Assembly (NCBI GenBank): GCA_035450485.1
Contig: DAOTMV010000012.1
Span: 38,882-102,881 of the forward strand
Direction of reading: 5' to 3'
DNA from: Anaerohalosphaeraceae bacterium
GTDB taxonomy: Bacteria > Planctomycetota > Phycisphaerae > Sedimentisphaerales > Anaerohalosphaeraceae
DNA: 64,000 nucleotides
This document shows, in pieces, positions 40,440 through 55,200 of the stretch. A program made the translations under genes and the position numbers. Below the pieces are notes generated by a model. That model did no database searches and was not told the origin of the DNA. It saw nothing but the letters and a program-made list of their open reading frames with translations. The stretch's first letter is position 1. Every line of letters begins with the position of its first letter.

Positions 40440-40836
40440 CGGTCTGCCCTTTCCCGTCGAATCTGAATTTTTTCAGCGTGTTTTCGAACCACTCCCGCAG
40501 GGTTTCACTGTCGATCTGCATGTGGATCGCCTCGACTACCAGGAGTTCCAACTGCTCGTGCAGGATGCGGCGGCGAACCGCGCGGCTCAAATTGCTTGAC
40601 AACTCCGCCACAAAGGCCCCCGCCCCGGGCCGTGTGACGATGATACCGTCCTGTTCGAGCTGACGATAGGCCTTGGCAATGGTGTTGGGATTGATGACCA
40701 GGGCGGCCGACAGTTCGCGAACGGTCGGCAGGCGCTGGCCCGTTTTGAGCCGTCCCATGGCGATATCCCGCTTGACCTGGTCGATAATCTGCTGGTAGAC
40801 GGCCCTCTCGGAGCCGTGATCGATGGTAATCTGCAT
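40432..40836 (-). CDS. GntR-family (YtrA-like) transcriptional regulator
   Basis: 134 aa. N-terminal winged-HTH RLPTVRELSAALVINPNTIAKAYRQLEQDGII, with the short C-terminal domain typical of the YtrA subfamily. First gene of the operon. Confidence 0.85.
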   Translation of the reverse strand: MQITIDHGSERAVYQQIIDQVKRDIAMGRLKTGQRLPTVRELSAALVINPNTIAKAYRQLEQDGIIVTRPGAGAFVAELSSNLSRAVRRRILHEQLELLVVEAIHMQIDSETLREWFENTLKKFRFDGKGQTDE

Positions 40837-40869
40837 GAGCCATACCTTTCGGATTGTGCCCCTGTTACC

Positions 40870-40896
40870 ACTTGTACTATGGCATCTATTACAAGT
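40870..40896. promoter_or_regulatory. inverted repeat ACTTGTA-N13-TACAAGT; candidate GntR/YtrA operator
   Basis: Perfect 7-bp inverted repeat ~35 nt upstream of the gntR start, in the divergent intergenic region. YtrA-type regulators usually bind GT..AC-containing palindromes in their own promoters. Confidence 0.35.
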
Positions 40897-40985
40897 ATAT
40901 CACAGAAAAGGCCACGGTCAAGTCACAAGGGAAGATTTTCTTCAAAATTGGCGGCAGTCTGCAGTTCGGATGCCCGGAATTAAGC

Positions 40986-41013
40986 TTGCCAATGGCTGCC
41001 AGGCCGCTATAAT
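40986..41013 (+). promoter_or_regulatory. sigma70-like promoter TTGCCA-16-TATAAT for DUF3592 operon
   Basis: Near-consensus -35 and a perfect -10 with 16-nt spacer, ~50 nt upstream of the ATG at 41069. Confidence 0.45.
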
Positions 41014-41068
41014 GACAAGTAATCGCTGTCGGGCCAAGAGTAAATCCGCGTATGCAGGATCACTGCGT

Positions 41069-42337
41069 ATGAAATTCCACATAAGATCAGGTCGTCGCAA
41101 CGACTTGCGTGTCGGATCCCGCCACGCACGGCCTCTCTCTTCGAGAGCGGCAAGCGGCAAGAGAGCCAAAGCCGCCGCGTTCATCGTCTTCGGTATGTTC
41201 ACCGTGTTCGGCTTTGCGTTCTCGTATTTCTTTCTGGTCCGACCGGTGAAGAACCTCATTGCCGCCCGCTCCTGGGTCGAGACGCCGTGCACGATTCTCA
41301 GCGCCAACGTGAAGTCGCACAGCAGCAGCGACGGTACAACGTACAGCGTGGACATCACTTACGAGTACCGGTTCGGCAACCGGACGTATACGTCGGACCG
41401 CTACAATTTCATGGGAGGCTCATCCAGCGGCCGTTCCGGCAAGCAGGAAGTGGTTGACCGGTACCGCAAGGCCAAGAACCCCGTCTGCTACGTCGACCCG
41501 CACAACCCGCAGTCCGCCGTGCTCGTACGCAAGGTTCAGCCGGTCATGCTCTGGGGACTGTTTCCTGTGATTTTCATTCTCGTGGGTGTCGCCGGCGTCA
41601 CAGCCACTTTGCGAGGGCGACGGAAGCCCGTCTCGGCGAGCGCCGGCAAAGATACCGCCGCCGACTGGCTGCCGGAGACAAGAACCGCCGTGCCGGGCAA
41701 CGTTTATGCCGCGCCGATCGCCGCGGGTGGCCCGGTTGTCCTGAAAGCCAAACATTCGCGGGCTTCCAAGGTGGTCTTTCTGGTCATCTTTGCCGTCCTC
41801 TGGAACGGCATCGTCTCGATCCCTGTCACCCAGGTCGTCAAGAGCTTTCAACGAGGCCGTCCCGAGTGGGGACTGACCCTTTTCATCTCCATCTTTGTGC
41901 TCGTTGGCTTGGCCGTCATCGTGGCCGTCGTGCACCAATTTCTCGCAATGTTCAATCCAAAGACGCAGTTGACGCTGAATTCTGCCAGCATTCCTTTAGG
42001 CGGCGCGGGGTATCTCAAGTGGGAGATTCTCGGCGCGGTCAATCGGATCAGCGAACTCATCATCACGCTGACGGCCCGCGAGGAATGCAGGTACCGGCGC
42101 GGGACCAAGACCTATACCGACAAGAACACGTTCTTCACCTTTGAGATCGCCCGCACGACGGAGCCTGTGCAAATGGCGTTCGGGGAGATTGCCTTCGCGA
42201 TTCCCTCCGACACCATGCATTCGTTCGAGGCGACGAACAACAAGATCATCTGGTCGCTGCACGTCAAAGGCGACATCAAGCGCTGGCCCGATCTGGACGA
42301 CCAGTTCGACATCACGATCACCCCGGCGGAATCATGA
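41069..42337 (+). CDS. membrane protein with two DUF3592-like domains
   Basis: ATG at 41069 (MKFHIRSG…); upstream ORF codons are rejected. The pattern TM helix – ~100-aa β-rich domain (…TYTSDRYNF…NPVCYVDPHNP…) – TM helix occurs twice, as in the DUF3592 fold. Confidence 0.6.
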   Translation: MKFHIRSGRRNDLRVGSRHARPLSSRAASGKRAKAAAFIVFGMFTVFGFAFSYFFLVRPVKNLIAARSWVETPCTILSANVKSHSSSDGTTYSVDITYEYRFGNRTYTSDRYNFMGGSSSGRSGKQEVVDRYRKAKNPVCYVDPHNPQSAVLVRKVQPVMLWGLFPVIFILVGVAGVTATLRGRRKPVSASAGKDTAADWLPETRTAVPGNVYAAPIAAGGPVVLKAKHSRASKVVFLVIFAVLWNGIVSIPVTQVVKSFQRGRPEWGLTLFISIFVLVGLAVIVAVVHQFLAMFNPKTQLTLNSASIPLGGAGYLKWEILGAVNRISELIITLTAREECRYRRGTKTYTDKNTFFTFEIARTTEPVQMAFGEIAFAIPSDTMHSFEATNNKIIWSLHVKGDIKRWPDLDDQFDITITPAES

Positions 42338-42717
42338 GCATGAGTGAAATCGAGATACGAACCGACAACGACGTCACCCGTCTTGCCCCCGGTGAGATAC
42401 TTGCAGGCAGTGTCCGCTGGAACCTGCTCGAGCCGCCGCGATCGATCGACCTGCGCCTGATGTGGTATACCCAGGGCAAAGGCGACGGCGATGTCGGCGT
42501 CGTTGATTCAATCACGTTCGACAATCCCGCACAGTATGAGACCCGAAGGTTTCAGTTTCAGCTACCCAATGGCCCGTACAGTTTCAGCGGCAAGCTGATT
42601 GCCCTCATCTGGGCCCTCGAAGCAGTTGTCCAGCCGCGCGATCGATTCGAGCGGCTCGAGATCGTGGTGTCACCCACCCGCCGGGAAATCGCCCTGCTTG
42701 CCCCGCAACCCCAATGA
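42334..42717 (+). CDS. hypothetical 127-aa protein (translationally coupled)
   Basis: Start overlaps the upstream stop as ATGA. β-rich; no family recognised. Confidence 0.45.
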   Translation: MSMSEIEIRTDNDVTRLAPGEILAGSVRWNLLEPPRSIDLRLMWYTQGKGDGDVGVVDSITFDNPAQYETRRFQFQLPNGPYSFSGKLIALIWALEAVVQPRDRFERLEIVVSPTRREIALLAPQPQ

Positions 42718-43280
42718 CAACGGCACGGCACAACCCCTTTGCCATGCACCGTATCCATTCTATACGGTACATGCCCCAGACGTGTACGTGGCCGGAGTTG
42801 CTTGAACGCTTGCGCACGATGGAATACCGCGGCGCAATCGTCGGGCCGGAAGGTTCCGGCAAGACGACGCTCCTTGAAGACCTCGGCCGGCACCTTGCTG
42901 AGGAAGGCCGCACCTGCCGGAGTATCTTCATTACGCTGGACGTAAAGGTTCCTCCGAGGGAGATCCGTGCCGCGGTCAACGCAGCGGATTACGACGTTCT
43001 TCTGATCGATGGGGCCGATCACCTCCACCCGCTTGTCTTCGGCATTATCAAGCACAAGACCGCTCGCGGCCGAAAGGGCCTGGTTATCACCTCGCACAGG
43101 CCCAACCTGCTGCCCACGCTCATCGAATGCCACACCAGCCCGGACCTCTTTGGCCAAATTGTCGAGACCCTCGCTCCCAGCGGTGACTGCCCCGAGAATA
43201 TCGCCGCGGTTTATCATAAACACAAGGGCAACATCCGGGATGCTCTGCGGGAACTCTATGATCTGACCGCATTGAAATAA
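42714..43280 (+). CDS. small P-loop NTPase
   Basis: Walker A GPEGSGKTT, Walker B-like VLLIDGADH, then LVITSH (sensor-like). 188 aa. Start overlaps the upstream stop (ATGA). Confidence 0.6.
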   Translation: MTTARHNPFAMHRIHSIRYMPQTCTWPELLERLRTMEYRGAIVGPEGSGKTTLLEDLGRHLAEEGRTCRSIFITLDVKVPPREIRAAVNAADYDVLLIDGADHLHPLVFGIIKHKTARGRKGLVITSHRPNLLPTLIECHTSPDLFGQIVETLAPSGDCPENIAAVYHKHKGNIRDALRELYDLTALK

Positions 43281-43602
43281 CTGCGCCAAGTCGTGCACAT
43301 TTCTACTGAAAATTCTTAAAAACCCTGTCACGCCCCTGCCGGCACCCAGTCTAATCCTGTGAAAAGCGGGCTTTACGCGACAAAAACGCACGTGAGGTCA
43401 AAAATTTTATCGGACGCCGGATTTCCGTTTGACAATTCTCCGGCCGCCCGGTATCACAAGAGTGGATATTCTGGACGTATCCGGTGCCGTCTGTGTAGGA
43501 CGGAGATCGCCGGCTACTCAGGACGATCAGACCGGCACCCATGCCGGCCGTCGTCGGTCATTCCGGCAAAAAGCCGGAAGCCTAACAGAAAGGAGTATCA
43601 AA

Positions 43603-44289
43603 ATGGGTCTTTTCAAACGCATCCACAGAATCACCGTTGGCCGCATTGAAACCTTCCTCGACCGCGCCGAAGATCCCGAGGTCATCTTCCCGGTGCTCAT
43701 CCAGGAGATGGAAAAGCAGCTTAAGGCGGCGACCGAAGCCGAGGCCAAGGCGTCGGCTGCGGTGAAGGCCGCCCAGCGCGACCTGAAGCGGCAGCAGGAG
43801 AAGGTCGACCGGTTCGGCAAAGGCGCGGCGCAATCGCTTAAGAAAGGCGACGAGGAGACGGCCCGCATGTCGATCGAGGCGCAGATCGAGGCGGAAAAGA
43901 ACCTTGCCGTGGCGCAGCAGAACGTCGATTCGGCGACGGACTCGCTGGACCACGCCAATGCGGCGCGTCGCCGCATCCAGCAGCAGCTTGATGAGCTTCG
44001 CACGCGCAAAGAAGACATCCTCACACGGGCCCGTGTCGCCAAGGCGCAAAAGAAGATTCAGCGGACCGTCAGCGGCTCGGCGGGCTCTACCGACAGCATC
44101 CTCGATGCGGTCGCACGGCTGGAGGCGGGCGTGGAACAGGCCGAGGCGGAGTTGGAAATCCAGGCCAGTTTGACGGGCACCTCCAACGGCAGCCCTTCGC
44201 TGGAAAAATGCCTGCGTGATCTGGACCACGACAGCGAAGTCGAGGCCCGCCTGTCGCAGATTCGCCTGTCGATCGCGGAGAGCGCCTGA
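43603..44289 (+). CDS. PspA/IM30 (Vipp1/ESCRT-III-like) family protein, paralog 1
   Basis: ATG at 43603 with an AGAAAGGAG RBS. MGLFKRIHRITVGRIETFLDRAEDPEVI… is the canonical PspA N-terminus. 228 aa coiled coil. Confidence 0.8.
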   Translation: MGLFKRIHRITVGRIETFLDRAEDPEVIFPVLIQEMEKQLKAATEAEAKASAAVKAAQRDLKRQQEKVDRFGKGAAQSLKKGDEETARMSIEAQIEAEKNLAVAQQNVDSATDSLDHANAARRRIQQQLDELRTRKEDILTRARVAKAQKKIQRTVSGSAGSTDSILDAVARLEAGVEQAEAELEIQASLTGTSNGSPSLEKCLRDLDHDSEVEARLSQIRLSIAESA

Positions 44290-44334
44290 CCGGTTGCCCC
44301 GGTCGGCAATCCACCGGAAGAGAGGAGCAAACCA

Positions 44335-45012
44335 ATGTCCATATTCGAACGCATACAGCGCATCGCCAAGGCGAACGTCAACTGGCTGCTTGACAAGGCC
44401 GAGCCCGCCGAGCAGGAACTGGCCTCCAAGATCAAGGAACTCGAAGAGACGCTTCTCGAAGGACGCGAAAGCGCGGCGACCTATGGCGCGACGTTCCGTC
44501 GGCTCGAAACCGAAATGCAGCAGCTCCAGCAGAAACAGGCCGACCTGACCGCGCAGGCCGAGACGGCGCTCAAGGCCGGAGACGAGACAGCTGCGCGGAA
44601 GGCGCTCGCCGAAAAAGTGCGATTAGCCGAACGGATCGCCCAGATGAAGCCCGGCCTGGACCGCGGCCGGCAGACCTTCGAGATGCTGCGTGACAACATG
44701 ATCAAGCTGCAGGAACAGCTTAAGGCCGCCAAGCTGAAATTCGAGGACCTTAAGGCCCGCAAACGGACCGCCGAGGCCCAGAAGGCCTTTGACAAGCACC
44801 TCAGCCGGGCCGTGGCCTTCAATCCGGACGGCGTCACCTTCGACCGACTCGAAGACCAGGTCCTCCAGTCCGAGGCCGAGGTGCAGATCAACCAGGAACT
44901 CCGCGGCGATTCGCTCACCGAGATCGAACTGGCCCAGAGAGCCCGCGACATGCAGGTCGAAGCGGAACTGGCGGAACTCAGAGAACGCCTCAACCAGGGC
45001 AAAGCCGGATAA
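44335..45012 (+). CDS. PspA/IM30 family protein, paralog 2
   Basis: MSIFERIQRIAKANVNWLLDKAEPAEQEL…, 225 aa. GAGAGGAG RBS. Confidence 0.8.
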   Translation: MSIFERIQRIAKANVNWLLDKAEPAEQELASKIKELEETLLEGRESAATYGATFRRLETEMQQLQQKQADLTAQAETALKAGDETAARKALAEKVRLAERIAQMKPGLDRGRQTFEMLRDNMIKLQEQLKAAKLKFEDLKARKRTAEAQKAFDKHLSRAVAFNPDGVTFDRLEDQVLQSEAEVQINQELRGDSLTEIELAQRARDMQVEAELAELRERLNQGKAG

Positions 45013-45024
45013 GGAGAACCTCCC

Positions 45025-45666
45025 GTGGAACTTCTGCACATGTCCCTGATGCCCGCCAACATTGGCGCGACCGTCTTTCTTGCGATGATACTCGCTTACT
45101 GGCTCACGGTCCTCCTCGGTGCGCTCGATCTGGACTTCCTTGATTTCGATCTTGACGCCGACGTCGACGCCGATCTCGGCAGCGATCTGGATGTCTCCGT
45201 CGGCGTCTTCGACGGCATGCTTGCCTTTTTCTATCTGGGCAAGATCCCACTCATGATCCTCTTGAGCATATTCGCACTCTGCCTCTGGGTCATCTCGATA
45301 ATCGCCAACGGCTATCTCAATCCTTCGGGTTCGCTCGCCCTGGGCTTGCCCCTGGCTGTTGGCAACCTGATCGTTTCGCCGTTCATCTGCAAGGTGATCT
45401 GTGCACCTTTAGCGAGGTTCTTCATGGCTTTGAAAAAAGATCCCAATGCCCCGGCGGACGTTATGGGCCGCATTTGCAGAGTAACCACCTCCCAGGTGTC
45501 TGCGAAAATGGGGCAGGCGGAGGTCTCCACCAGCGGGGCCCCGATACTGCTGAATGTTGTTGCCGACGGCGATCATGTCTTCAAAAAGGGAGACGAAGCC
45601 GTCGTCATCGGAAAAGATGAGAAGAAGGGCGTGCACATCATTGCACCGGTAAATCTGGAGGACTGA
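45025..45666 (+). CDS. YqiJ/NfeD-like membrane protein (OB-fold C-terminal domain)
   Basis: Two TM segments separated by an acidic D/L repeat loop. The C-terminal ~70 aa (…GRICRVTTSQ…GQAEV…DEAVVIGKDEKKGVHIIAPV) has an NfeD-like β-barrel pattern. Sits immediately upstream of the flotillin, as in yqiJK. Start codon is GTG. Confidence 0.6.
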   Translation: MELLHMSLMPANIGATVFLAMILAYWLTVLLGALDLDFLDFDLDADVDADLGSDLDVSVGVFDGMLAFFYLGKIPLMILLSIFALCLWVISIIANGYLNPSGSLALGLPLAVGNLIVSPFICKVICAPLARFFMALKKDPNAPADVMGRICRVTTSQVSAKMGQAEVSTSGAPILLNVVADGDHVFKKGDEAVVIGKDEKKGVHIIAPVNLED

Positions 45667-45668
45667 AC

Positions 45669-47663
45669 ATGTTGGCAGCGGTTCCGTTTGAGCAGTTGAT
45701 TGTGACTTGCGGCATTATTGTTGGTGGTATATTCTTCATCGCTCTCCTACTGTTTGCCAAATGCTGGCGCAAAGTCGCACAGGGTCAGGCACTAATCCGC
45801 AATGGCCTGTGGGGAACACAGGTCAGCTTCTCTGGCAAAATGGTTTTCCCCGTCCTGCACCGCGTCGAGTACATGGACATCTCCGTCAAGCGGATCGAGA
45901 TCGACCGCGGCGGCGCCTCGGGCCTTATCTGCAAGGACAACCTGCGTGCGGACATCAAGGTGGCGTTCTTCGTGCGCGTCAACAATACGGCCGAGGACGT
46001 CAAGAAGGTCGCTCAGGCCTTGGGCTGTATGCGGGCCAGCGACGAACGGGCGCTCTATGAACTCTTCGACGCCAAGTTTTCAGAGGCGCTCAAGACGATC
46101 GGCAAGAAATTCGATTTTGCGGAACTGTACGTCGAACGCGTCAGGTTCAAAGAGGAGATACTGCAGATCATCGGCACGGACCTCAACGGCTACATCCTCG
46201 AAGACGCCGCCATCGACTACCTGGAGCAGACCGACAAGAAGCTGCTCAGCCCCGACAACATCCTCGATGCCGAGGGCATCAAGAAGATCACGGTCCTGAC
46301 GGCCGAGCAATTCGAGCTGGCCAACGCCCGCGAGCGCGAAAAGGACATGACGATCACCAAGCAGAATGTCGAGGCCCAGGAGGCGATCCTCGAACTTAAT
46401 CGCCAGTTGGCCGAGGCGGATGCCAAGCAGAAACGCGAAGTCGCCTCCGTGCAGGCCCGCGAAGAAGCCGAGACCAAGCGCATCCAGGCGCAGGAACGCG
46501 AAAAGGCCGAGAAGGCCCGCATCGTCGCCGACGAAGAGATTGCCGTCGCCGAAGAGAACAAGCTGCGTCAGATCATCGTCGCCGCCAAGAACAAGGAGCG
46601 CACCGAGGCCGTTGAGATCGAACGGGTCGAGCGCGACCGGGGCCTGGAGGCCACCGAGCGCGAGCGGCTGGTCACCATCGCCCAGGTCGAAAAGGACAAG
46701 GTGGTCGAGGGCCAGAGGAAGGAACTGCAGGCGGCCATTCGTGAACGGGTCACTGTCGAGAAGACGGTGGTGAAGGAAGAAGAGAACATCAAGGACACCC
46801 GCGCCTTCGCGGGGGCCGACCGACAGAAAAAGGTCGCCATTACGCAGGCCGAGGAGCAGGCCGAGCAGGCCCTGGTCAAGGACATTAAGGCCGCCGAAGC
46901 CAGCAAGAAGGCCGCCGAGTTCTACGCCGAGCAGCAGATCATCGAGGCCCAGGCCAATCTCGACGCCGCCAGCCGCAACGCCGAGGCCAAGAAGACCATC
47001 GCCGCCGCCGAGGTCAAGGAACATGCCGTTGCGGGCATTGCCGAAGCGGAAGTCATGGAGGCAAAGGCGGCGGCCATCGAGAAACAGGGTACCGCCGAAG
47101 CAAAGGTCATGGAACTGAAGTACCACGCCGAGGCCGACGGGATTCGCGACAAGGCCGAAGCGATGAAGATCTTCGATGCGGTCGGCAAGGAGCACGAAGA
47201 GTTCAAGATCCGCATCAACAAAGACAAGGAAGTGGAACTGGCAAGCATCAACGTACAGAAGGACATTGCAGCCGAACAGGCAAAGATCGTGGCCGAGGCC
47301 CTCAAGAGCGCCCGCATCGACATCGTCGGCGGCGACAACAACTTCTTCAATCGGCTGGTCAACTCCATCACAACCGGCAAGGCCGTGGACCGTATGATCG
47401 AAAACAGCGATGCGCTGACCGGCCTCAAGAACACGCTGTTGGGCGGCGACGCGGAACTGAACCGTGAGAACATCCGCCGCTTCATCGATCAGTTTGGCCT
47501 GTCGGCGGAGGATATCAAGAACCTCTCCGTCAGTGCCCTGGTCGTCAAGCTCATGGCCGACGCCGACGAAGGCAGGAAGGGCCTGCTCAGCCGCATCCTG
47601 CACGCGGCCAAGGAAATAGGCATCGCCGATATGCCGGCGGAAAAACTCCTGGCGGAAAAGTAA
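45669..47663 (+). CDS. flotillin / SPFH (band-7) family protein, YqiK-like
   Basis: 664 aa. N-terminal TM helix, an SPFH domain, and a very long Ala/Glu/Lys-rich coiled coil (the flotillin EA-repeat region). GGAGGA RBS. Confidence 0.85.
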   Translation: MLAAVPFEQLIVTCGIIVGGIFFIALLLFAKCWRKVAQGQALIRNGLWGTQVSFSGKMVFPVLHRVEYMDISVKRIEIDRGGASGLICKDNLRADIKVAFFVRVNNTAEDVKKVAQALGCMRASDERALYELFDAKFSEALKTIGKKFDFAELYVERVRFKEEILQIIGTDLNGYILEDAAIDYLEQTDKKLLSPDNILDAEGIKKITVLTAEQFELANAREREKDMTITKQNVEAQEAILELNRQLAEADAKQKREVASVQAREEAETKRIQAQEREKAEKARIVADEEIAVAEENKLRQIIVAAKNKERTEAVEIERVERDRGLEATERERLVTIAQVEKDKVVEGQRKELQAAIRERVTVEKTVVKEEENIKDTRAFAGADRQKKVAITQAEEQAEQALVKDIKAAEASKKAAEFYAEQQIIEAQANLDAASRNAEAKKTIAAAEVKEHAVAGIAEAEVMEAKAAAIEKQGTAEAKVMELKYHAEADGIRDKAEAMKIFDAVGKEHEEFKIRINKDKEVELASINVQKDIAAEQAKIVAEALKSARIDIVGGDNNFFNRLVNSITTGKAVDRMIENSDALTGLKNTLLGGDAELNRENIRRFIDQFGLSAEDIKNLSVSALVVKLMADADEGRKGLLSRILHAAKEIGIADMPAEKLLAEK

Positions 47664-47775
47664 CCTGGATCGATGATGAGAAGCCGCGCCGGGCGTGACG
47701 GGCATATCGGCAACGATGTGCGGTCTCGTCCGGCGCTGCGGCCTCTGCGGCCACGGAATACAGAGAAGTCCGACA

Positions 47776-50700
47776 ATGGTGGAGAACAACGAAACGACCC
47801 CGATGCCGCATGACAATGCGGCCGACGCCGCGCTTCAAGGCGGGGCTTACGAGGTGATTCGCAAGCGTCTCGAGACCCATGGCCGCGAACTGCGGCAGCG
47901 TATGGTGAAACTGAACGCAGCCCGCAAGGATGTTTTCGGGGCGATCGAGTCCCGGCTGATCGCGGCCGAGCGCGTCACGACAAGCAACAACTGCATTCCG
48001 CGCGACATGATCCCGGTCGGCGACCGCTTCATCTTCGGTTACAACGTGTTCGTGGGCCTTAGGACCGAAACGACCCTGGCCGATGTGTTCTCGATTTATC
48101 GGCTTGTGGACGGCCAGTTCGTCGAATGCCCGCTTGAGCTGATCGAAGACGAGCGGTTCATCGCCGACTTCAAGAACCTCTTCAAATACTATCGCCACAC
48201 CACCTTCGCGAAGTTCGCCATCCGGGGCCCACACTTGTTCATGGTGTTCAGCATCGGCAAAAGCGCCGCAGACATCAAGACGTTTAAGTGGCTCATCACC
48301 GAGGGACGTCTTCGGTACCTCGATAACCGCAGCGACCATGAGCTCGTCTATCCGGCCCAGCACCAGTTCGAGTGGATCCGCACCACACAGGACATGCACC
48401 GCAGCGGCCTCAATCCGCACATCTCCATCGAAGAGCGTGTGTTCGTCGAAACCATCGGCGGCGACCTGACCATCAAAATCGAAGACAACACCGAGACCGG
48501 ACAGGGCATCTATTCCGAACCCGTGGACGACCCCGACCAGACGCTCATTGACGCCGAGATATACTACGCCATCATCGGCAATATCATCCTGCTGAAGATC
48601 CGCCCCTACCAGGAAGAGAATTTCCGTTACATTGTCTACAGCGAAAAAACGCGCCGCGCCGTTCGCATCGACTCCATCAAGGACGCCTGTGTGCTTCTGC
48701 CGCAGGGCCAGGGCCTCGTTTTCCCGCGGGGCTATTACCTGCAGACGGGTGAGACCCGGCAGTTCGAAACCAATGTAACCAACATGGTCTTCGAGAAATG
48801 CATCGCCTCGCCCAACGGCGAAGACTTCCTGTACCTCTTCTACAACCACGAAAACGGCGTCTACCTGCTGCTTCCGTACAATCTCATCGAGCAAAGCATG
48901 AGCACGCCGCTGATCTGTAACGGATTCTCCGTGTTCGATGACGGAACACTCATCTGCCTGCGGGCCGGCAGCGAACCGCAGAAGCATCACGCCGTCCAGA
49001 TCTGGAAAACCCCCTACTACGGTCCCGACCACACAATCGAAGTCTTGAAGGACGCGCCGCTTTACAAGATCGGCAACACAGCCATCGTGCGATGCATGGC
49101 CGAGTGCACGGAACTGTTGAACCTGTTGGCTAAAGACGAGTCCTATGCGAACCTGTACGTCGATATCGCCCGCAAGGCCCAGGACATTTGCGACAGTTAC
49201 TTCTGGCTGGGCGACGCGGAGGTCTTCAATCTGGCCGAGCCGCTTGGCAATATCCAGAAAGCCGCCAGCGCGGCGATCGAGGAGTTCGAGAAGGTTGTCC
49301 GCACCCGGCGAAACACCCAGAATGAAATAGATGCCGCGGCGCGCCAGGTCACAGAGGCGATCGCGGCCATTGACTACGACGCCCTCAACAACATCGATCT
49401 TTATGTAAACCATCTGGCGCAACTGCGGGCGCTGCGGGGCCGCGTCGTCTCGCTCAAGGATTTGCGGTACGCCGACCTGGAAACCGTCGAGAAACTCGAA
49501 ACCGAGGTCGCCCAGCACACGGACCGGCTCAGTTCGCTCTGTATACGGTTCCTTCTTGACCCGGAGGCGCTGGCGCCCTACCGGCGCCGCATCGACGAAC
49601 AGTCCGCACAGGTCGACAAGACACAGAAGGTCACCGAGGCCAGGGAGCTATCCGAGCGGGTTGACGAAACAGCCGCTCAACTGGAGATGCTCACCGAGAT
49701 CGTCAGCAATCTGAAGATCGAGGACGCCACCCAGACCGTTGCCGTCATCGACAATATTTCGCTGGTGTACTCGCGGCTCAACCAGGTCCGCAGCGCGCTG
49801 AAGAACCGCATTAACGAACTCGGTACAGTGGAAGGCCAGGCTGAATTTGCCGCCCAGATCAAGCTCCTTGACCAGTCCGTCATCAATTACCTCGATGTCT
49901 GCGACACACCTGAGAAGTGCGACGAGTATCTAACGAAGATAACCGTGCAGCTCGAAACGCTTGAAAGCCGGTTCGCCGACTTTGACGAATTCATCGGCCG
50001 CCTGACGGAGAAGCGCGAAGAGCTTTACAACGCATTCGAAAGCCGCAAGGTCCAGATCGTCGCACACCGTAACCAGCGGGCCTCGGCCCTCATGGCGGCC
50101 GCCGAGCGAGTCCTCAAGGGCATTGAAAACCGCCTCCGCAGCTTCAGCGACATTAATGAGATCAACGGCTACTTCGCTTCCGACCTCATGGTTCAGCGGG
50201 TCCATGACGCAGTGGAACAGTTGCTTGAGTTGGGCGACACCGTCAAGGCTGAGGATATCAGGACGCGCCTAAAGGCGCTCCAGCAGGATGCGGTGCGTCA
50301 GCTCAAGGACCGTCAGGCGCTCTTTGTCGACGGCGACAATATCATTCGCCTCGGCCGTCATCGCTTCCGTGTCAATCGTCAGCCGCTGGAAGGCACGATC
50401 GTCCGCCGCGGCGACAAGATGTTCTATCACCTTACCGGCACCGGCTTCTTCGAGGAGATCACCGATGAAGCACTGCTGGCGGCCCGCGACGCATGGGACC
50501 TCGAAGTGCCGTCGGAAAGCCCTGAGGTCTACCGGGCCGAGTACCTTGCGTATCTCATGCTGCAGGATGCGTCGGTGGATGCACAGTCGCTTGCTGCGGC
50601 CGAATTCGAGCAGGTGCTCGCCCGTGTCCAGGCCTTCATGGGCCCGCGCTACGAAGAAGGCTACATCAAGGGCGTACACGACCACGATGCGGCCAGGATT

Positions 50701-53181
50701 CTTCAGTCACTGGTACAAATGCGGGCCGAGATCGGCCTGCTGCGCTACCCCACGCAGGCCCGTGCGCTGGCCGCGGCCTTCTGGATGCTGTCCGATGAGG
50801 TCGACGCCAAAGCACGGCTGGCATCCCGCATCGCCGCCGCCGGGCGCATCCGCGAATTGTTTGACGATTCCGCGATCGAAAGCCTGTATGTCAGCCAGCT
50901 TACCGACTTGCTGAGCACGTTTGTCGATGAAACCGGCGTGTTCGACTCCAAATGGATCGCTCCGGCCGCGGAGTATCTTTTTTGCGAGCTGGCCAATCCC
51001 GATGATTCGGGCTTCGCCGTAAGCCGCATCGCCGTGGACATCCGTGCCGCTTTTGAGGATCATCTCCGAAAGCGCCGCTTTGTACAGCGTTTCGCGCAGG
51101 CCGACAACGCACTTTCGGGCGATCCTTTGGGTCGTTTGCGTCTGTTGACCGACTGGGTCGGAGCGTTCCTTCGCACAAGTGACGGCGCGAAACTCGAGTA
51201 TGCCGACGAAGTCGCCGTCCTGATGCTTGACGAGAAGGCGCAAAACCGACCTGTTATCGACAAGCCCATTGAGCGGCAACTCAGCGGGATACTCGGTTCA
51301 CACCCCCGCATCGTTCAGGCAGGACTTGAACTGAACTACTGCGATTTCATGACACGGCTGAACCATCATGCACAGCACATCGTGCCCCGCTTTGTCGAAT
51401 TCCGTCGGATCAAGCAAGACCTGGTGGAACAGTACGCCGAGCGTCTCCGCCTTGATGAGTTCAAGCCGCGTGTGCTGTCGACCTTCGTCCGCAACAAGCT
51501 CATCGACAAGGTCTACCTGCCCCTGATCGGCGATAATCTGGCCAAACAGATCGGTTCCGCCGACGAGACGAAGCGCACCGACACGCAAGGCCTGCTGCTG
51601 CTGATCAGCCCGCCCGGCTACGGCAAGACCACCCTGATGGAATATATGGCCAACCGTTTAGGCCTGACCTTCATGAAGATCAACGGGCCGGCCATCGGCA
51701 GCCATGTCACGGCGCTTGACCCGGCGACCGCCCCCAACTCAGCCGCCCGCGAAGAGCTTCAGAAGCTCAATCTTGCCTTCGAGATGGGCGACAACGTCAT
51801 GATTTACATCGACGACATTCAGCATACCAACCCGGAGTTCCTGCAAAAGTTCATTTCGCTCTGCGATGCCCAGCGGCGCATCGAGGGCGTCTTCGGCGGC
51901 AGGCCAAGAACATACGACCTCCGTGGAAAACGCGTCTGCGCCGTCATGGCCGGCAACCCGTACACCGAAAGCGGCGAGAAATTCAAGATACCCGACATGT
52001 TAGCCAACCGTGCCGACACGTACAATATTGGCGATATCGTCGGGGACAACCGCGAAGAATTCGTCTCCAGCTACGTGGAAAATTGCCTTACGTCCAACCC
52101 CGTGCTGCAGTCGCTGGCGATGCGCAGCCAGAAGGACGTGTACACCGTGATGAAAATCGCCGAGACCGGGCGACAGGACAACATGGAATTCGAGGCTAAC
52201 TACAGCGCCGATGAACTCGACGAGTATGTCGCGACAATGAAAAAGCTCTTCGTCGTTCGCGAGGTGCTGCTCAAGGTCAACCAGCAGTACATCGCCTCGG
52301 CGGGGCAAAACGACGCCTACCGCACCGAGCCGCCCTTCCTGCTGCAAGGCTCCTACCGTAACATGAACCGTATCGCCGCACGCGTTCTGCCTGTCATGAA
52401 TGACGACGAGTTGTGGACGCTCATCGTGTCGAGCTACGAGCAGGATGCACAGACACTCACCACCGGAGCTGAAGCCAACATGCTCAAATTTCGTGAACTC
52501 ATCGGGCATCTGACCGATGAACAAGCCAGGCGGTGGAGCGATATCAAGAAGACCTTCACACGCAATCTGCTGCTTGGCGCCGACACCGACGACCGTGTCG
52601 GAAAGATCATCGGCCAGCTCAATGCCTTCAGCGCAGGGCTGGACGGGATCAGGGACGTCCTGGCGGAAGGCATCGCCGCCGCCCGGCATAAGGAGGAGAA
52701 CGCCTGCCGCCAACAGGCGGAAGACGCCGCCCGACAGGTTGAAAAGAGCAGCCGTGATGATGCTGTACAAATTTTGGGTCGACAGGTACTTGATCGATTG
52801 GGTGAAGTCATCGCCGCCTTGAAGGAACGCCAGAAGGCACAGCAAGACCAGGAACAAACAGCCGAAATCAGGCGTCATGACGAGAACACCCGTATGCTCG
52901 TCACCGTACTCGAAGAACAGTTCAAAACGATGGAAACGTGGCTCATTCCGGTGCACCACAGTGACGCCGATCGCAGGGCGTACTTCCAGCACCTCGTTGG
53001 ACGTTTCCAGGAGATGGTGGATGGCTATACGCGGTTAATCGAGGCACTGCGCAACAAGTACGAACCGTTGCTGCGCAGCGAGGCGCCTGTATACCCAACG
53101 AGTAAAGACGAACAACCGAAGTCATCGCCGCCGCCAAAGCGGAACCAGAACAAATCGAAGGACAACCCTAAAAAGCAGTGA
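47776..53181 (+). CDS. giant (~1800 aa) multidomain protein with embedded MoxR/AAA_5-type AAA+ ATPase domain; function unknown
   Basis: Single uninterrupted ORF with good codon periodicity. Start at MVENNETTPM; an alternative start is 47803. AAA+ core around ORF residues ~1290-1480: Walker A LLLISPPGYGKTTL, Walker B VMIYIDDIQH, sensor-1 AVMAGNPY, and IPDMLANRADTYNI resembling the MoxR L..LDRF motif. Flanked by a β-rich N-domain, ~500 aa of coiled coil and a K/P-rich tail. Confidence 0.7.
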   Translation: MVENNETTPMPHDNAADAALQGGAYEVIRKRLETHGRELRQRMVKLNAARKDVFGAIESRLIAAERVTTSNNCIPRDMIPVGDRFIFGYNVFVGLRTETTLADVFSIYRLVDGQFVECPLELIEDERFIADFKNLFKYYRHTTFAKFAIRGPHLFMVFSIGKSAADIKTFKWLITEGRLRYLDNRSDHELVYPAQHQFEWIRTTQDMHRSGLNPHISIEERVFVETIGGDLTIKIEDNTETGQGIYSEPVDDPDQTLIDAEIYYAIIGNIILLKIRPYQEENFRYIVYSEKTRRAVRIDSIKDACVLLPQGQGLVFPRGYYLQTGETRQFETNVTNMVFEKCIASPNGEDFLYLFYNHENGVYLLLPYNLIEQSMSTPLICNGFSVFDDGTLICLRAGSEPQKHHAVQIWKTPYYGPDHTIEVLKDAPLYKIGNTAIVRCMAECTELLNLLAKDESYANLYVDIARKAQDICDSYFWLGDAEVFNLAEPLGNIQKAASAAIEEFEKVVRTRRNTQNEIDAAARQVTEAIAAIDYDALNNIDLYVNHLAQLRALRGRVVSLKDLRYADLETVEKLETEVAQHTDRLSSLCIRFLLDPEALAPYRRRIDEQSAQVDKTQKVTEARELSERVDETAAQLEMLTEIVSNLKIEDATQTVAVIDNISLVYSRLNQVRSALKNRINELGTVEGQAEFAAQIKLLDQSVINYLDVCDTPEKCDEYLTKITVQLETLESRFADFDEFIGRLTEKREELYNAFESRKVQIVAHRNQRASALMAAAERVLKGIENRLRSFSDINEINGYFASDLMVQRVHDAVEQLLELGDTVKAEDIRTRLKALQQDAVRQLKDRQALFVDGDNIIRLGRHRFRVNRQPLEGTIVRRGDKMFYHLTGTGFFEEITDEALLAARDAWDLEVPSESPEVYRAEYLAYLMLQDASVDAQSLAAAEFEQVLARVQAFMGPRYEEGYIKGVHDHDAARILQSLVQMRAEIGLLRYPTQARALAAAFWMLSDEVDAKARLASRIAAAGRIRELFDDSAIESLYVSQLTDLLSTFVDETGVFDSKWIAPAAEYLFCELANPDDSGFAVSRIAVDIRAAFEDHLRKRRFVQRFAQADNALSGDPLGRLRLLTDWVGAFLRTSDGAKLEYADEVAVLMLDEKAQNRPVIDKPIERQLSGILGSHPRIVQAGLELNYCDFMTRLNHHAQHIVPRFVEFRRIKQDLVEQYAERLRLDEFKPRVLSTFVRNKLIDKVYLPLIGDNLAKQIGSADETKRTDTQGLLLLISPPGYGKTTLMEYMANRLGLTFMKINGPAIGSHVTALDPATAPNSAAREELQKLNLAFEMGDNVMIYIDDIQHTNPEFLQKFISLCDAQRRIEGVFGGRPRTYDLRGKRVCAVMAGNPYTESGEKFKIPDMLANRADTYNIGDIVGDNREEFVSSYVENCLTSNPVLQSLAMRSQKDVYTVMKIAETGRQDNMEFEANYSADELDEYVATMKKLFVVREVLLKVNQQYIASAGQNDAYRTEPPFLLQGSYRNMNRIAARVLPVMNDDELWTLIVSSYEQDAQTLTTGAEANMLKFRELIGHLTDEQARRWSDIKKTFTRNLLLGADTDDRVGKIIGQLNAFSAGLDGIRDVLAEGIAAARHKEENACRQQAEDAARQVEKSSRDDAVQILGRQVLDRLGEVIAALKERQKAQQDQEQTAEIRRHDENTRMLVTVLEEQFKTMETWLIPVHHSDADRRAYFQHLVGRFQEMVDGYTRLIEALRNKYEPLLRSEAPVYPTSKDEQPKSSPPPKRNQNKSKDNPKKQ

Positions 53182-53217
53182 CGGCCCGGCCGTATTGCGG
53201 GCGAAAGCATAGAACAC

Positions 53218-53910
53218 ATGGGAAGGATCGCAAACCTCAGAAAAATTACCAAGGCGCGCATTGACGCGTTCTTGAACAGTATCGAGCGGCCGGAACGTAT
53301 CCTGCCGCAACTCGAAAAGGAAATGTCCCAGAAGGTTGCCGAGGCAGCCAAGGCCGAGGCAAAAGCGCTGGCGGCGGTGCGCGGGGCCCAGCGGCGCGTC
53401 GACGAAGCGGCCGGACGGGCAATGCGGCTGGAAAAGGGGGTAAAGCAGGCGATAACCGCCGGCGACATGGAAACGGCCCGCCGCGCAGTGGCCGCGCTTG
53501 TGGAGGCCGAGAAGGACACGGAACGTCTTCGCGCGGCGCTCGATACCGCTCACACAGCGTATCTCGATGCAGGCGCCGTTCGAAAACAGCTCGCCGACAC
53601 CCTCAACGATCTGAAGGCCCGCAGGAAGGACATCATCGACAGAAGTCGTCGTGTGGAATTGCAGAAGGCGATTCAGACGAATCGAGCGCTTGGCATCGCC
53701 GATGGCACAGAAATCCTCGACGTTGTCGCCCGTATGGAAGCAAGACTCGACCATGACGAGACCCTGATCGAAGCCGCCAACCATCTCCGGCCGACACTTG
53801 ACCTGACGCTGGATAGCGATATACTGAAACAGAGACTCCACGATGCAGAGGTCGAGGCGCGGTTGGCCGAACTGAAGGCCAAATACATGCCGCCGGCCAA
53901 CGGAGAGTAA
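53218..53910 (+). CDS. PspA/IM30 family protein, paralog 3
   Basis: MGRIANLRKITKARIDAFLNSIERPERILPQLEKEM… is a PspA-like N-terminus. 230 aa coiled coil. Confidence 0.75.
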   Translation: MGRIANLRKITKARIDAFLNSIERPERILPQLEKEMSQKVAEAAKAEAKALAAVRGAQRRVDEAAGRAMRLEKGVKQAITAGDMETARRAVAALVEAEKDTERLRAALDTAHTAYLDAGAVRKQLADTLNDLKARRKDIIDRSRRVELQKAIQTNRALGIADGTEILDVVARMEARLDHDETLIEAANHLRPTLDLTLDSDILKQRLHDAEVEARLAELKAKYMPPANGE

Positions 53911-53937
53911 CAAGGTCTGGAGGGCCTGGGGAGCAGG

Positions 53938-55200
53938 ATGAACACCGTAAGAGCGCTTCTTCTTTTCATTACTGCGCTGGGGATGCCAGCAGCGCCCCTC
54001 GCCGCCGACGGTCTCATCGCTTCCCCCGAGGATGGCTGGCCTCAATGGCGCGGTCCGAGACGTGATGGAATATCCACTGAAACGGGGCTTCTGCAGGCAT
54101 GGCCAGCGGAGGGGCCGCGGCTCCTGTGGAAGATAGGCGAACTCGGCCGGGGATGGTCGTCGCCCATCATTGTCAACGGTCGGCTTTATATCACGGGGGA
54201 CGCAGGCGATGACCTCGTAATCTTTGCCTTCGACACAGACGGCAAGCCCCTCTGGCGAGCCACAAACGGCAAGGCGTGGAAAGGGCCGTACCCCGGAGCA
54301 CGGGCTGCGTGCACGTTTTCCGAAGGCAAAATCTATAACATGAGTGCGCACGGGCGGGTGACCTGTCTCGATGCCGCATCAGGACGTGAACTGTGGGCGC
54401 TGGACATTCTCGAGCATTTCAGCGCCAAGAACATCACGTGGGCCTTGAGCGAGTGCCTGCTGGTGTACGGCCCGCGGCTCATCGTGACGCCAGGCGGGCC
54501 GAAGGCGCTGATGGCGGCGCTGCACAAGGACGATGGACATGTGCTGTGGAGCACGCCTCCCCTGCGCGAAGAAAACACATCTCATTGTTCTCCCATTCTG
54601 TTCGAGTACGCAGGCCGACGGATTGTCAGCAACTGCTCGGCGTCCTGCGGCTTTGGTCTGGATGCCGACACCGGTAAGCTGCTTTGGACAGTACCGTTGA
54701 AGAACCCGTACGGCACGAACGTCGCCACGCCTGTTTACGGCCGCGGGGCCGTTTACTACGTCACGCCCTATACGGAGATGGGGCGATGCTATCGTCTGCG
54801 TGCTAATGGGGACAAGATCGCCGCCGAGCATCTCTGGATCTCTTGCCTGGATACCGTCACAGGCTGCGCGGTCCTCGTTGATGGCGTGCTCTACGCCGCC
54901 AACTACAACCGGCCGAAGTGGTGGTTCGCCGTTGACTGGCAAACAGGAGAAACGCTGTACGAATGCCGAGAATTTACCACCGGCGCGGCCGTTTATGCCG
55001 ATGGCCGCCTGTACATCCTCGACGAAAGCGGCCAGGTCGGGCTCCTGAAGCCCACCAGAGACGGCCTGCAGATCCATGGCCGATTCTCACTCACCGACAG
55101 GAAAGTCAGGGATGCCTGGGCCCATCCGGTCATCCTCGATGGCCGGCTGTATCTCCGCTACCACGACACGCTGTTCTGCTACGATATTAGACAACGCTGA
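53938..55200 (+). CDS. secreted PQQ-like beta-propeller repeat protein
   Basis: Signal peptide. Repeated W..RG…G.(L/I)Y….DG.L.(A/C).D..TG..LW motifs. 27-nt gap after the third pspA. Confidence 0.65.
   Translation: MNTVRALLLFITALGMPAAPLAADGLIASPEDGWPQWRGPRRDGISTETGLLQAWPAEGPRLLWKIGELGRGWSSPIIVNGRLYITGDAGDDLVIFAFDTDGKPLWRATNGKAWKGPYPGARAACTFSEGKIYNMSAHGRVTCLDAASGRELWALDILEHFSAKNITWALSECLLVYGPRLIVTPGGPKALMAALHKDDGHVLWSTPPLREENTSHCSPILFEYAGRRIVSNCSASCGFGLDADTGKLLWTVPLKNPYGTNVATPVYGRGAVYYVTPYTEMGRCYRLRANGDKIAAEHLWISCLDTVTGCAVLVDGVLYAANYNRPKWWFAVDWQTGETLYECREFTTGAAVYADGRLYILDESGQVGLLKPTRDGLQIHGRFSLTDRKVRDAWAHPVILDGRLYLRYHDTLFCYDIRQR

Follow-up and report, generated by a model that had tools for sequence, protein, structure and literature searches.

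Reviews of PspA/Vipp1 and recent structural work describe bacteria as having no Vps4-like regulator of their ESCRT-III-type polymers (PMC7619361, PMC11746142). In a 64,000 nucleotide (nt) stretch of DNA from an Anaerohalosphaeraceae bacterium (contig DAOTMV010000012.1, positions 38,882 to 102,881; hereafter 'the window'), a gene encoding a giant ATPase of the AAA+ class lies between PspA genes and just downstream of a flotillin gene, raising the question of which of these neighbours the enzyme works with. An initial annotation, made from the sequence, had proposed PspA; the analysis described here shifts the primary partner to the flotillin. The locus is probably a lineage-specific, PspA-enriched version of a widespread membrane module consisting of a YqiJ/NfeD-type protein, a YqiK-type flotillin and the giant ATPase, for which a scaffold mechanism is proposed below. 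The features concerned are as follows.

43603-44289, + strand: PspA1, a PspA/IM30 protein of the ESCRT-III superfamily, 228 amino acids (aa); Pfam PspA_IM30 2.5e-25, 89.8 bits
44335-45012, + strand: PspA2, a PspA/IM30 protein, 225 aa; Pfam PspA_IM30 5.4e-27, 95.3 bits
45025-45666, + strand: YqiJ/YuaF-type membrane protein, 213 aa, with ~3 transmembrane (TM) segments and a C-terminal NfeD-like soluble domain; public start at 45040
45669-47663, + strand: YqiK-type flotillin, 664 aa, with an N-terminal TM segment, SPFH domain, long Glu/Ala-rich coiled coil and C-terminal domain
47776-53181, + strand: giant cytoplasmic ATPase, 1801 aa, start as in public records; the reading frame itself spans 47695-53181 (1828 aa)
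51607-51816, + strand: ATPase active-site motifs; Walker A SPPGYGKT at aa 1278-1285 and Walker B MIYIDD at aa 1342-1347, then IQH
53218-53910, + strand: PspA3, a PspA/IM30 paralog directly 3' of the ATPase, 230 aa; Pfam PspA_IM30 1.8e-15, 57.6 bits
53938-55200, + strand: PQQ_2/BamB-like beta-propeller with a signal-like N-terminus; Pfam PQQ_2 9.2e-25, hydrophobic N-terminal segment

The initial annotation's run of seven consecutive same-strand genes was recovered intact: all seven open reading frames (ORFs) lie on the + strand within 43603-55200, in the order PspA, PspA, YqiJ-type protein, YqiK-type flotillin, 1801 aa ATPase, PspA and PQQ propeller, and public gene calls on contigs encoding an identical giant protein independently agree. 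The intergenic gaps, previously put at 12-115 nt, are indeed short, but measure 2-112 nt (in order 45, 12, 2, 112, 36 and 27 nt). A promoter/terminator scan, the counts of which were not clearly above the expectation from shuffled sequence, found no terminator-like site on the + strand in any of these gaps. Given the short gaps and the lack of such sites between genes, the cluster is interpreted as an operon, the whole unit probably forming one transcript.

The neighbourhood of the ATPase gene was surveyed in 84 loci from more than eight phyla, 80 of them from a genome-collection scan and the remainder from annotated plasmid and chromid records, by scoring all ORFs against the proteins of the window and an iterated PspA profile. 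A flotillin gene is found just upstream of the ATPase, on the same strand, in 63 of the 66 assessable loci (~95%), and in 57 of these 63 the flotillin is itself preceded by YqiJ. By contrast, PspA is just upstream in 16 of 61 loci and just downstream of the ATPase in four of 74 (three same-strand, all Phycisphaerae). When the ORF immediately upstream of YqiJ was classified in an independent Pfam census, PspA_IM30 accounted for 17 of 46 cases, and every other family occurred once only. Counting adjacent genes only, PspA therefore accompanies ~25-37% of loci family-wide, mainly in Bacteroidota and in this Phycisphaerae lineage. These neighbour counts identify YqiJ, flotillin and the ATPase as a conserved unit, with PspA a recurrent but optional companion: the three core genes are co-inherited across many phyla, and PspA has been added alongside in some lineages. 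The suggestion that the giant protein is functionally tied to membrane genes is consequently supported. Its orthologues adjoin flotillin genes almost without exception, and PspA genes in a minority of loci.

The loci from the genome scan derive from Planctomycetota, Bacteroidota, Verrucomicrobiota, Desulfobacterota, Omnitrophota, Kiritimatiellota, Clostridia and Chitinispirillaceae, and the ATPase system was also found in Actinomycetota, Deinococcota and Gammaproteobacteria, a breadth showing that it is not specific to planctomycetes or to endomembranes, which the initial annotation had brought into its interpretation. In records from Hymenobacter, the Pseudomonas fluorescens plasmid pQBR103, Streptomyces and Deinococcus, a gene annotated as 'DNA repair ATPase' is preceded each time by a flotillin/SPFH gene and, ahead of that, by a small ORF of ~145-215 aa; the small ORF matches YqiJ in three of these four, the Streptomyces copy giving no match. 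A Tir chaperone gene and PspA stand ahead of the triad in the Hymenobacter record, and the triad occurs with no adjacent PspA in Proteus mirabilis, Vibrio campbellii, Streptomyces and Deinococcus. Among close relatives, with 81%, 79% and 64% identity, the order PspA, PspA, YqiJ, flotillin, ATPase, PspA is kept, with one of the three having an extra small Band_7 gene. A small (~184 aa) gene matching only Band_7 was observed between YqiJ and the large flotillin in two loci (L091:5331-5885 and L018:6987-7538).

Genes downstream of the ATPase are mutually unrelated, including those for transglutaminase-like, subtilase, RelA/SpoT and transposase proteins. ORFs in this position, or between the flotillin and the ATPase, were considered as extra conserved members of the operon and rejected, being heterogeneous. 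The spacer between flotillin and ATPase is itself variable: it is enlarged to 0.5-2.4 kb in 19 loci, mostly of Bacteroidota and Verrucomicrobiota (L020, L022, L026, L030-L032, L035, L036, L038, L041-L044, L048, L049, L052, L054, L066 and L073), where it carries unrelated small genes of mobile or toxin-antitoxin type (DUF559, IS200 transposase, PDDEXK_3, AbiEii, ParE, DMP19 and SHOCT). It looks like an insertion hotspot within an otherwise fixed operon. In the window, the spacer (47664-47775, + strand) comprises 112 nt of GC-rich sequence with inverted repeats, shows partial, moderate conservation in the two nearest relatives, and could be an internal RNA element or processing site.

The initial annotation did not recognise this arrangement as a described system, but the operon type has already been listed, computationally only, in the comparative genomic study of Ravi et al. 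(2024, mSystems, PMC11237479; preprint 2020), which contains neither experimental data nor an assignment of the ATPase to an AAA+ clade. A conserved operon comprising CesT/Tir-PspA, YqiJ/YuaF, a Band-7/flotillin protein and a 'beta-propeller + coiled-coil + AAA-ATPase' is reported there, with Dokdonia donghaensis (ANH61663.1) as a tabulated example; a short form consisting of flotillin, YqiJ and the ATPase is said to be more widespread, and it was suggested that this might cooperate with PspA encoded elsewhere (PMC11237479). The locus in the window shares the three core genes, their order, the ATPase architecture and an adjacent PspA: it encodes the propeller/coiled-coil/AAA+ ATPase, the flotillin and, upstream, the YqiJ/YuaF multi-TM protein. 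It differs in having not one PspA gene but three, a tandem pair upstream and a single gene downstream, and a dedicated structured 5' leader; furthermore, the CesT/Tir-PspA dyad is not present, as nearby small ORFs gave no Pfam match even at E <= 1 and public gene calls include no CesT/Tir gene. Hence the locus is a variant of the long-form operon, with three PspA paralogs, no CesT/Tir and its own leader RNA. The Bacteroidota form was itself recovered in the survey, for example in L001, which has a Tir chaperone gene. On the P. fluorescens SBW25 plasmid pQBR103 (L002, 85-98 kb), the triad is joined to the other type of PspA operon that Ravi et al. define, in a ten-gene same-strand run that adds PspA, rhomboid, DUF2491, DUF350 (YjfL), DUF1190 and glutathionylspermidine synthase genes.

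The giant protein is identical (100%) to protein P0001 from an Anaerohalosphaeraceae metagenome-assembled genome, and translation most likely starts at 47776. In Pfam it matches DUF3686 (E 4e-183, aa 38-476 in the 1801 aa numbering) and DUF7902, with weak AAA, AAA_5 and RuvB_N matches at a single P-loop. The family numbers more than 5,200 proteins at E 1e-10, a lower bound since the search was saturated, and the N-terminal domain alone gives 749 clusters at 50% identity; among the matches listed, full-length members are ~1,600-1,930 aa long, with the DUF3686-region domain at the N-terminus. Products of the family are named 'DNA repair ATPase' by NCBI and 'MoxR-like ATPase' by JGI. A literature search returned no paper mentioning DUF3686, PF12458, or 'DNA repair ATPase' together with flotillin; nor does the ATPase come up in papers dealing with the SPFH proteins of Pseudomonas aeruginosa or with the evolution of SPFH.

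AlphaFold2 (AF2) models, with predicted local distance difference test (pLDDT) scores of 84.6 and 85.9, cover aa 1-1660. These predict an N-terminal helix followed by a beta-propeller of ~7 blades (aa 60-411; DUF3686), long helices and coiled coil over ~420 residues (aa 428-846, DUF7902 included), a small beta unit with an all-alpha domain (aa ~870-1150) and a single AAA+ module (aa ~1270-1640). Beyond aa 1660 lies a variable tail of coiled coil with a Lys/Pro-rich end; a link between this tail and the downstream PspA3 was rejected, as Pirellulales copies have a long tail and no downstream PspA. No TM segment was predicted and no peptidase family detected by Pfam. The ATPase is therefore a soluble protein with intact nucleotide-binding motifs, and its large N-terminal region is of the kind that usually binds partners. 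When compared using Foldseek, the propeller model retrieved only generic propellers (CyRPA, Kelch, the clathrin terminal domain and IFT-A), so the clathrin and IFT matches were not taken as evidence for a coat protein. A sequence search against solved structures gave a match limited to ~40 residues round the P-loop.

The Walker A and Walker B columns are invariant in alignments of 12 and 62 sequences, as are sensor-1 N1394 and R1412. Walker B invariantly ends in Asp-Asp, with Asp in place of the usual catalytic Glu. The sensor-1 region, GNPYTESGEKFKIPDMLANR, resembles in our reading the MoxR signature, and the AF2 model places a beta-hairpin directly before the sensor-1 strand, a feature absent from the classical AAA clade under the established AAA+ classification. 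At the position of pore loop 1, the segment aligned to p97 by HMMER is GPAIGSHV, which contains no aromatic residue. Foldseek matches to the AAA+ module were not discriminating, with RuvB (listed first), Hsp104, FtsH, MCM and NorQ all at E ~1e-5; nevertheless, the core is of the MoxR/AAA_5 type, and the fold is nearest to the MoxR chaperones CbbQ and NorQ, midasin and dynein. MoxR-family ATPases (CbbQ, NorQ and RavA) and the AAA modules of midasin and dynein are accordingly the nearest AAA+ relatives, save that no partner with a VWA/MIDAS domain is apparent, Pfam scans and public annotations revealing no VWA family among the cluster proteins. These features suggest an ATPase that is competent but probably slow and switch-like, rather than a processive threading unfoldase. 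The analysis thereby places the module in the MoxR/dynein-like group and corrects the 'DNA repair ATPase' annotation.

The two membrane proteins of the triad were identified mainly by profile comparison. In the case of the flotillin this is because detection by sequence against Pfam fails: the protein by itself has no Pfam, NCBIfam or useful PDB sequence match (TAF1 at E 0.49 with the single sequence, and only the coiled coil of QmcA with the profile), and Band_7 is matched by just three of the 26 family members, the other 23 relatives going undetected. A profile of this 26-member family aligns to E. coli YqiK by hhalign with 100% probability (E 2.6e-41) across residues 27-429, corresponding to the SPFH domain and coiled coil; beyond ~430 there is no alignment. 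One TM segment is predicted in the flotillin, at its N-terminus. The YqiJ-like protein alone falls under the Pfam cut-off (YqiJ_N, 3e-4), while among 19 family members YqiJ_N is matched by six and NfeD by two; the 171 columns over which its family profile aligns to E. coli YqiJ, with 95.5% probability, take in the C-terminal soluble domain. The identification of PspA, NfeD/YqiJ and SPFH flotillin modules in the initial annotation is thus confirmed, as is the resemblance it noted to E. coli yqiJK and B. subtilis ydjFGHI. These loci, along with B. subtilis yuaFG (floT), likewise have an NfeD/YqiJ-type membrane protein followed by a flotillin, but none of them includes an AAA+ ATPase; the genes after yqiK in E. 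coli are sibD/ibsD.

PspA1, PspA2 and PspA3 all exceed the PspA_IM30 gathering cut-off of 33.9 bits over their full length, and none reaches the NCBIfam equivalog cut-offs for E. coli PspA or LiaH. Their pairwise identity is only 25-36%, PspA1 being 36% identical to PspA3 and 29% to PspA2, and they are therefore old paralogs. The position of PspA2 is preserved in relatives P0002, P0003 and P0006, and a PspA gene directly follows the ATPase in L005, L007, L082, L089, L090 and L091 as well, all from Phycisphaerae. The PspA proteins of the window match Bacteroidota copies only at E 1e-4 to 1e-5, and it is possible, judging by these sequences, that PspA was recruited separately in Phycisphaerae and Bacteroidota.

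Upstream of PspA1 lie two further features.

43429-43457, + strand: promoter-like site, TTGACA, 17 nt spacer, TATCAC (inferred); the -35 hexamer and spacing are kept in two relatives, while the flanks diverge
43460-43602, + strand: structured 5' leader RNA of five helices, ~140 nt, upstream of PspA1; relatives at L089:3681-3824, L090:3702-3846, L091:2985-3137 and in L094-L103

This leader RNA is previously undescribed and has no match in Rfam. Its ~140 nt are near-invariant in two relatives whose proteins are ~80% identical, and the sequence further upstream diverges. A search pattern built from two invariant blocks retrieved ten metagenome contigs, in all ten of which the match is directly upstream of a PspA gene. 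Across 12 distinct leader sequences, 91.5% of cells are paired, versus 35-54% in slid controls, and compensatory changes occur in 16 of 42 pairs, values matched by none of 500 shuffles; the search pattern itself imposes the invariant blocks, and the covariation falls in regions that the pattern leaves unconstrained. Folding of the single sequence yields the same structure, with a minimum free energy of -61.2 kcal/mol (z = -4.68). The covariance model matches the leader at 147 bits and also recovers sequences outside its building set.

In helix 1 of the leader, the 5' end (GGAUAUUCUGG) pairs with the Shine-Dalgarno region (AAGGAGUAUC), so that the helix is predicted to sequester the ribosome-binding site of PspA1. 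In L082, a full-length copy is found ~210 nt upstream of the ORF called as PspA, which is in a different frame. Reduced copies, consisting of helix 1 and the first hairpin, immediately precede YqiJ in two loci of Phycisphaerae without PspA (L011, 7228-7305; L033, 7240-7317), and hence the leader appears to be tied to the operon rather than to PspA alone. The promoter-like site was not flagged by the consensus promoter scan, because its -10 hexamer ends in C. Being supported by covariation, the leader provides a handle on the signal controlling the system.

Under the favoured scaffold mechanism, the flotillin, like other SPFH proteins, would oligomerise, together with YqiJ, into a scaffold anchored in the membrane on its cytoplasmic side, and the ATPase would dock on this scaffold through its propeller and coiled coil. 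Slow, switch-like ATP turnover might then serve to assemble, reset or open the scaffold, or to act on proteins collected by it. The divergent paralogs PspA1, PspA2 and PspA3 may be membrane-sealing effectors recruited to this platform, by analogy with B. subtilis, where, according to passages in two papers, PspA (YdjF) is encoded in one operon with the SPFH protein YdjI, which links it to the membrane (PMC7619361, PMC9239133). Translation of the first gene would be gated by the structured leader, which may hide the ribosome-binding site. A number of points weigh against this explanation. The literature search yielded no experiment on any protein of the ATPase family. A flotillin cage, its orientation towards the cytoplasm and a switch-like enzyme are extrapolated from other SPFH proteins and from the Asp-Asp Walker B; contact between ATPase and flotillin is proposed from gene context, and co-transcription from gene spacing only. 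In addition, three of the 66 assessable loci (L021, L027 and L039) have the ATPase with no upstream flotillin, and the 80 loci from the genome scan, being those that best matched a query based on planctomycete sequence, do not amount to an unbiased census.

The alternative closest to the initial annotation is that the giant ATPase is a functional counterpart of Vps4, extracting subunits from PspA polymers built of the three paralogs, with flotillin providing only the site of assembly. As in the archaeal Cdv and eukaryotic ESCRT systems, several ESCRT-III-superfamily paralogs lie beside an AAA+ ATPase, a setting in which ATP could conceivably drive the turnover of polymers; here the paralogs bracket the enzyme, in an arrangement kept down to 64% identity, and PspA is the sole recurrent accessory neighbour across phyla. 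Furthermore, PspA encoded elsewhere may work with the triad, as Ravi et al. suggest (PMC11237479), and the absence of a known Vps4-like regulator of bacterial PspA noted in the reviews leaves room for such a partner. Against this, the ATPase tracks flotillin rather than PspA family-wide, and it has neither the MIT nor the Vps4_C domain in Pfam, its N-terminus being a single helix and then a propeller where Vps4 has MIT. The predicted pre-sensor-1 hairpin is foreign to the classical clade, pore loop 1 lacks an aromatic residue, and the Asp-Asp Walker B would speak against a fast, processive unfoldase. A Vps4-like role in remodelling PspA is thus conceivable, but it is not the best-supported reading and is considered unlikely. 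Comparably doubtful is a hybrid proposal, in which the MoxR-like ATPase would be a non-homologous analogue of Vps4, stationed on the flotillin/YqiJ platform and turning over a heteropolymer of the three PspA proteins, with the leader RNA sensing a membrane-related signal; if true, this would be the energy-consuming regulator that bacterial ESCRT-III has been missing.

Somewhat less probable again is that the targets of the ATPase are neither the scaffold nor PspA but client proteins of the membrane that the flotillin scaffold has collected, in a chaperone or extraction role like that of FtsH in HflK/C or of MoxR ATPases in the maturation of partner complexes. SPFH scaffolds elsewhere pair with client-acting AAA+ enzymes, as in HflK/C with FtsH and prohibitin with m-AAA, and in the window the genes for a putative pair of this kind adjoin; the nearest folds are those of the chaperones CbbQ and NorQ, and large regions of this propeller and coiled-coil kind typically bind substrates or adaptors. 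However, no candidate client gene is conserved beside the triad, the neighbours being heterogeneous on both sides, and the VWA partner normally needed by MoxR ATPases was not found in the cluster. Moreover, whereas FtsH is a membrane-anchored protease of the classical AAA clade, the giant ATPase is MoxR-like, with no TM segment or protease domain. Carriage on large plasmids (pQBR103 and those of Hymenobacter, Streptomyces and Deinococcus), together with the small mobile and toxin-antitoxin-type genes in the enlarged spacers of 19 loci, could instead be taken to indicate a conflict or defence module, such as a membrane-acting abortive-infection system on mobile elements. This is very improbable: no PADLOC match was significant, those to LmuB and JetC being coiled-coil noise; the majority of copies sit in chromosomes beside housekeeping genes (carB here, relA/spoT elsewhere); and the gene order is maintained from phylum to phylum, which fits an old cellular function. 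Least credible of all is that the 'DNA repair ATPase' label is correct and the position among membrane genes coincidental. The Pfam description of PF12458 and the NCBI product names say so, and there is the weak P-loop similarity to RuvB_N and the first-listed Foldseek match to RuvB, but Pfam detects no nuclease, helicase or DNA-binding domain, membrane-protein neighbours occur in 63 of 66 loci, repair genes were never among the neighbours examined, and the literature search found no paper mentioning the family by these names. The initial annotation had regarded membership of a known family with an unrelated role such as DNA repair, never near PspA or flotillin genes, as the finding that would overturn it; the label has no support from domains, context or literature, and the conserved synteny effectively refutes it.

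Encoded beside a flotillin in nearly all loci examined and repeatedly beside PspA, this widespread ATPase family is a testable candidate for the turnover of bacterial flotillin assemblies or ESCRT-III-type polymers. Members are present in culturable organisms, including Proteus mirabilis, Vibrio campbellii, Pseudomonas fluorescens with pQBR103, Streptomyces and flavobacteria.

The last of the seven genes, encoding the PQQ/BamB-like protein, which is probably periplasmic judging by its N-terminus, had been included as a member of the cluster. Only two relatives, those with 81% and 79% identity, keep it behind PspA3, and the 64% relative lacks it; just downstream of the ATPase it is absent in every other locus, a single match in L077 being ~8 kb downstream. 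It is probably a co-directional neighbour rather than a functional member. The same-strand run also extends beyond both ends of the cluster, with carB downstream and the following genes upstream.

40823-43280, + strand: genes for a DUF3592 membrane protein, a 127 aa ORF with no family and a 188 aa small P-loop NTPase with weak STAND/AAA_22 matches

These three genes overlap one another and lie between divergent GntR/ABC genes and the PspA leader; all are missing from the three relatives with 81%, 79% and 64% identity. A DUF3592 gene was also seen once inside a flotillin-ATPase spacer, at another locus. Across the window as a whole, GC skew on the + strand is strongly positive (0.06-0.23 per 2 kb window) over positions 1-27000 and approximately zero across the rest.

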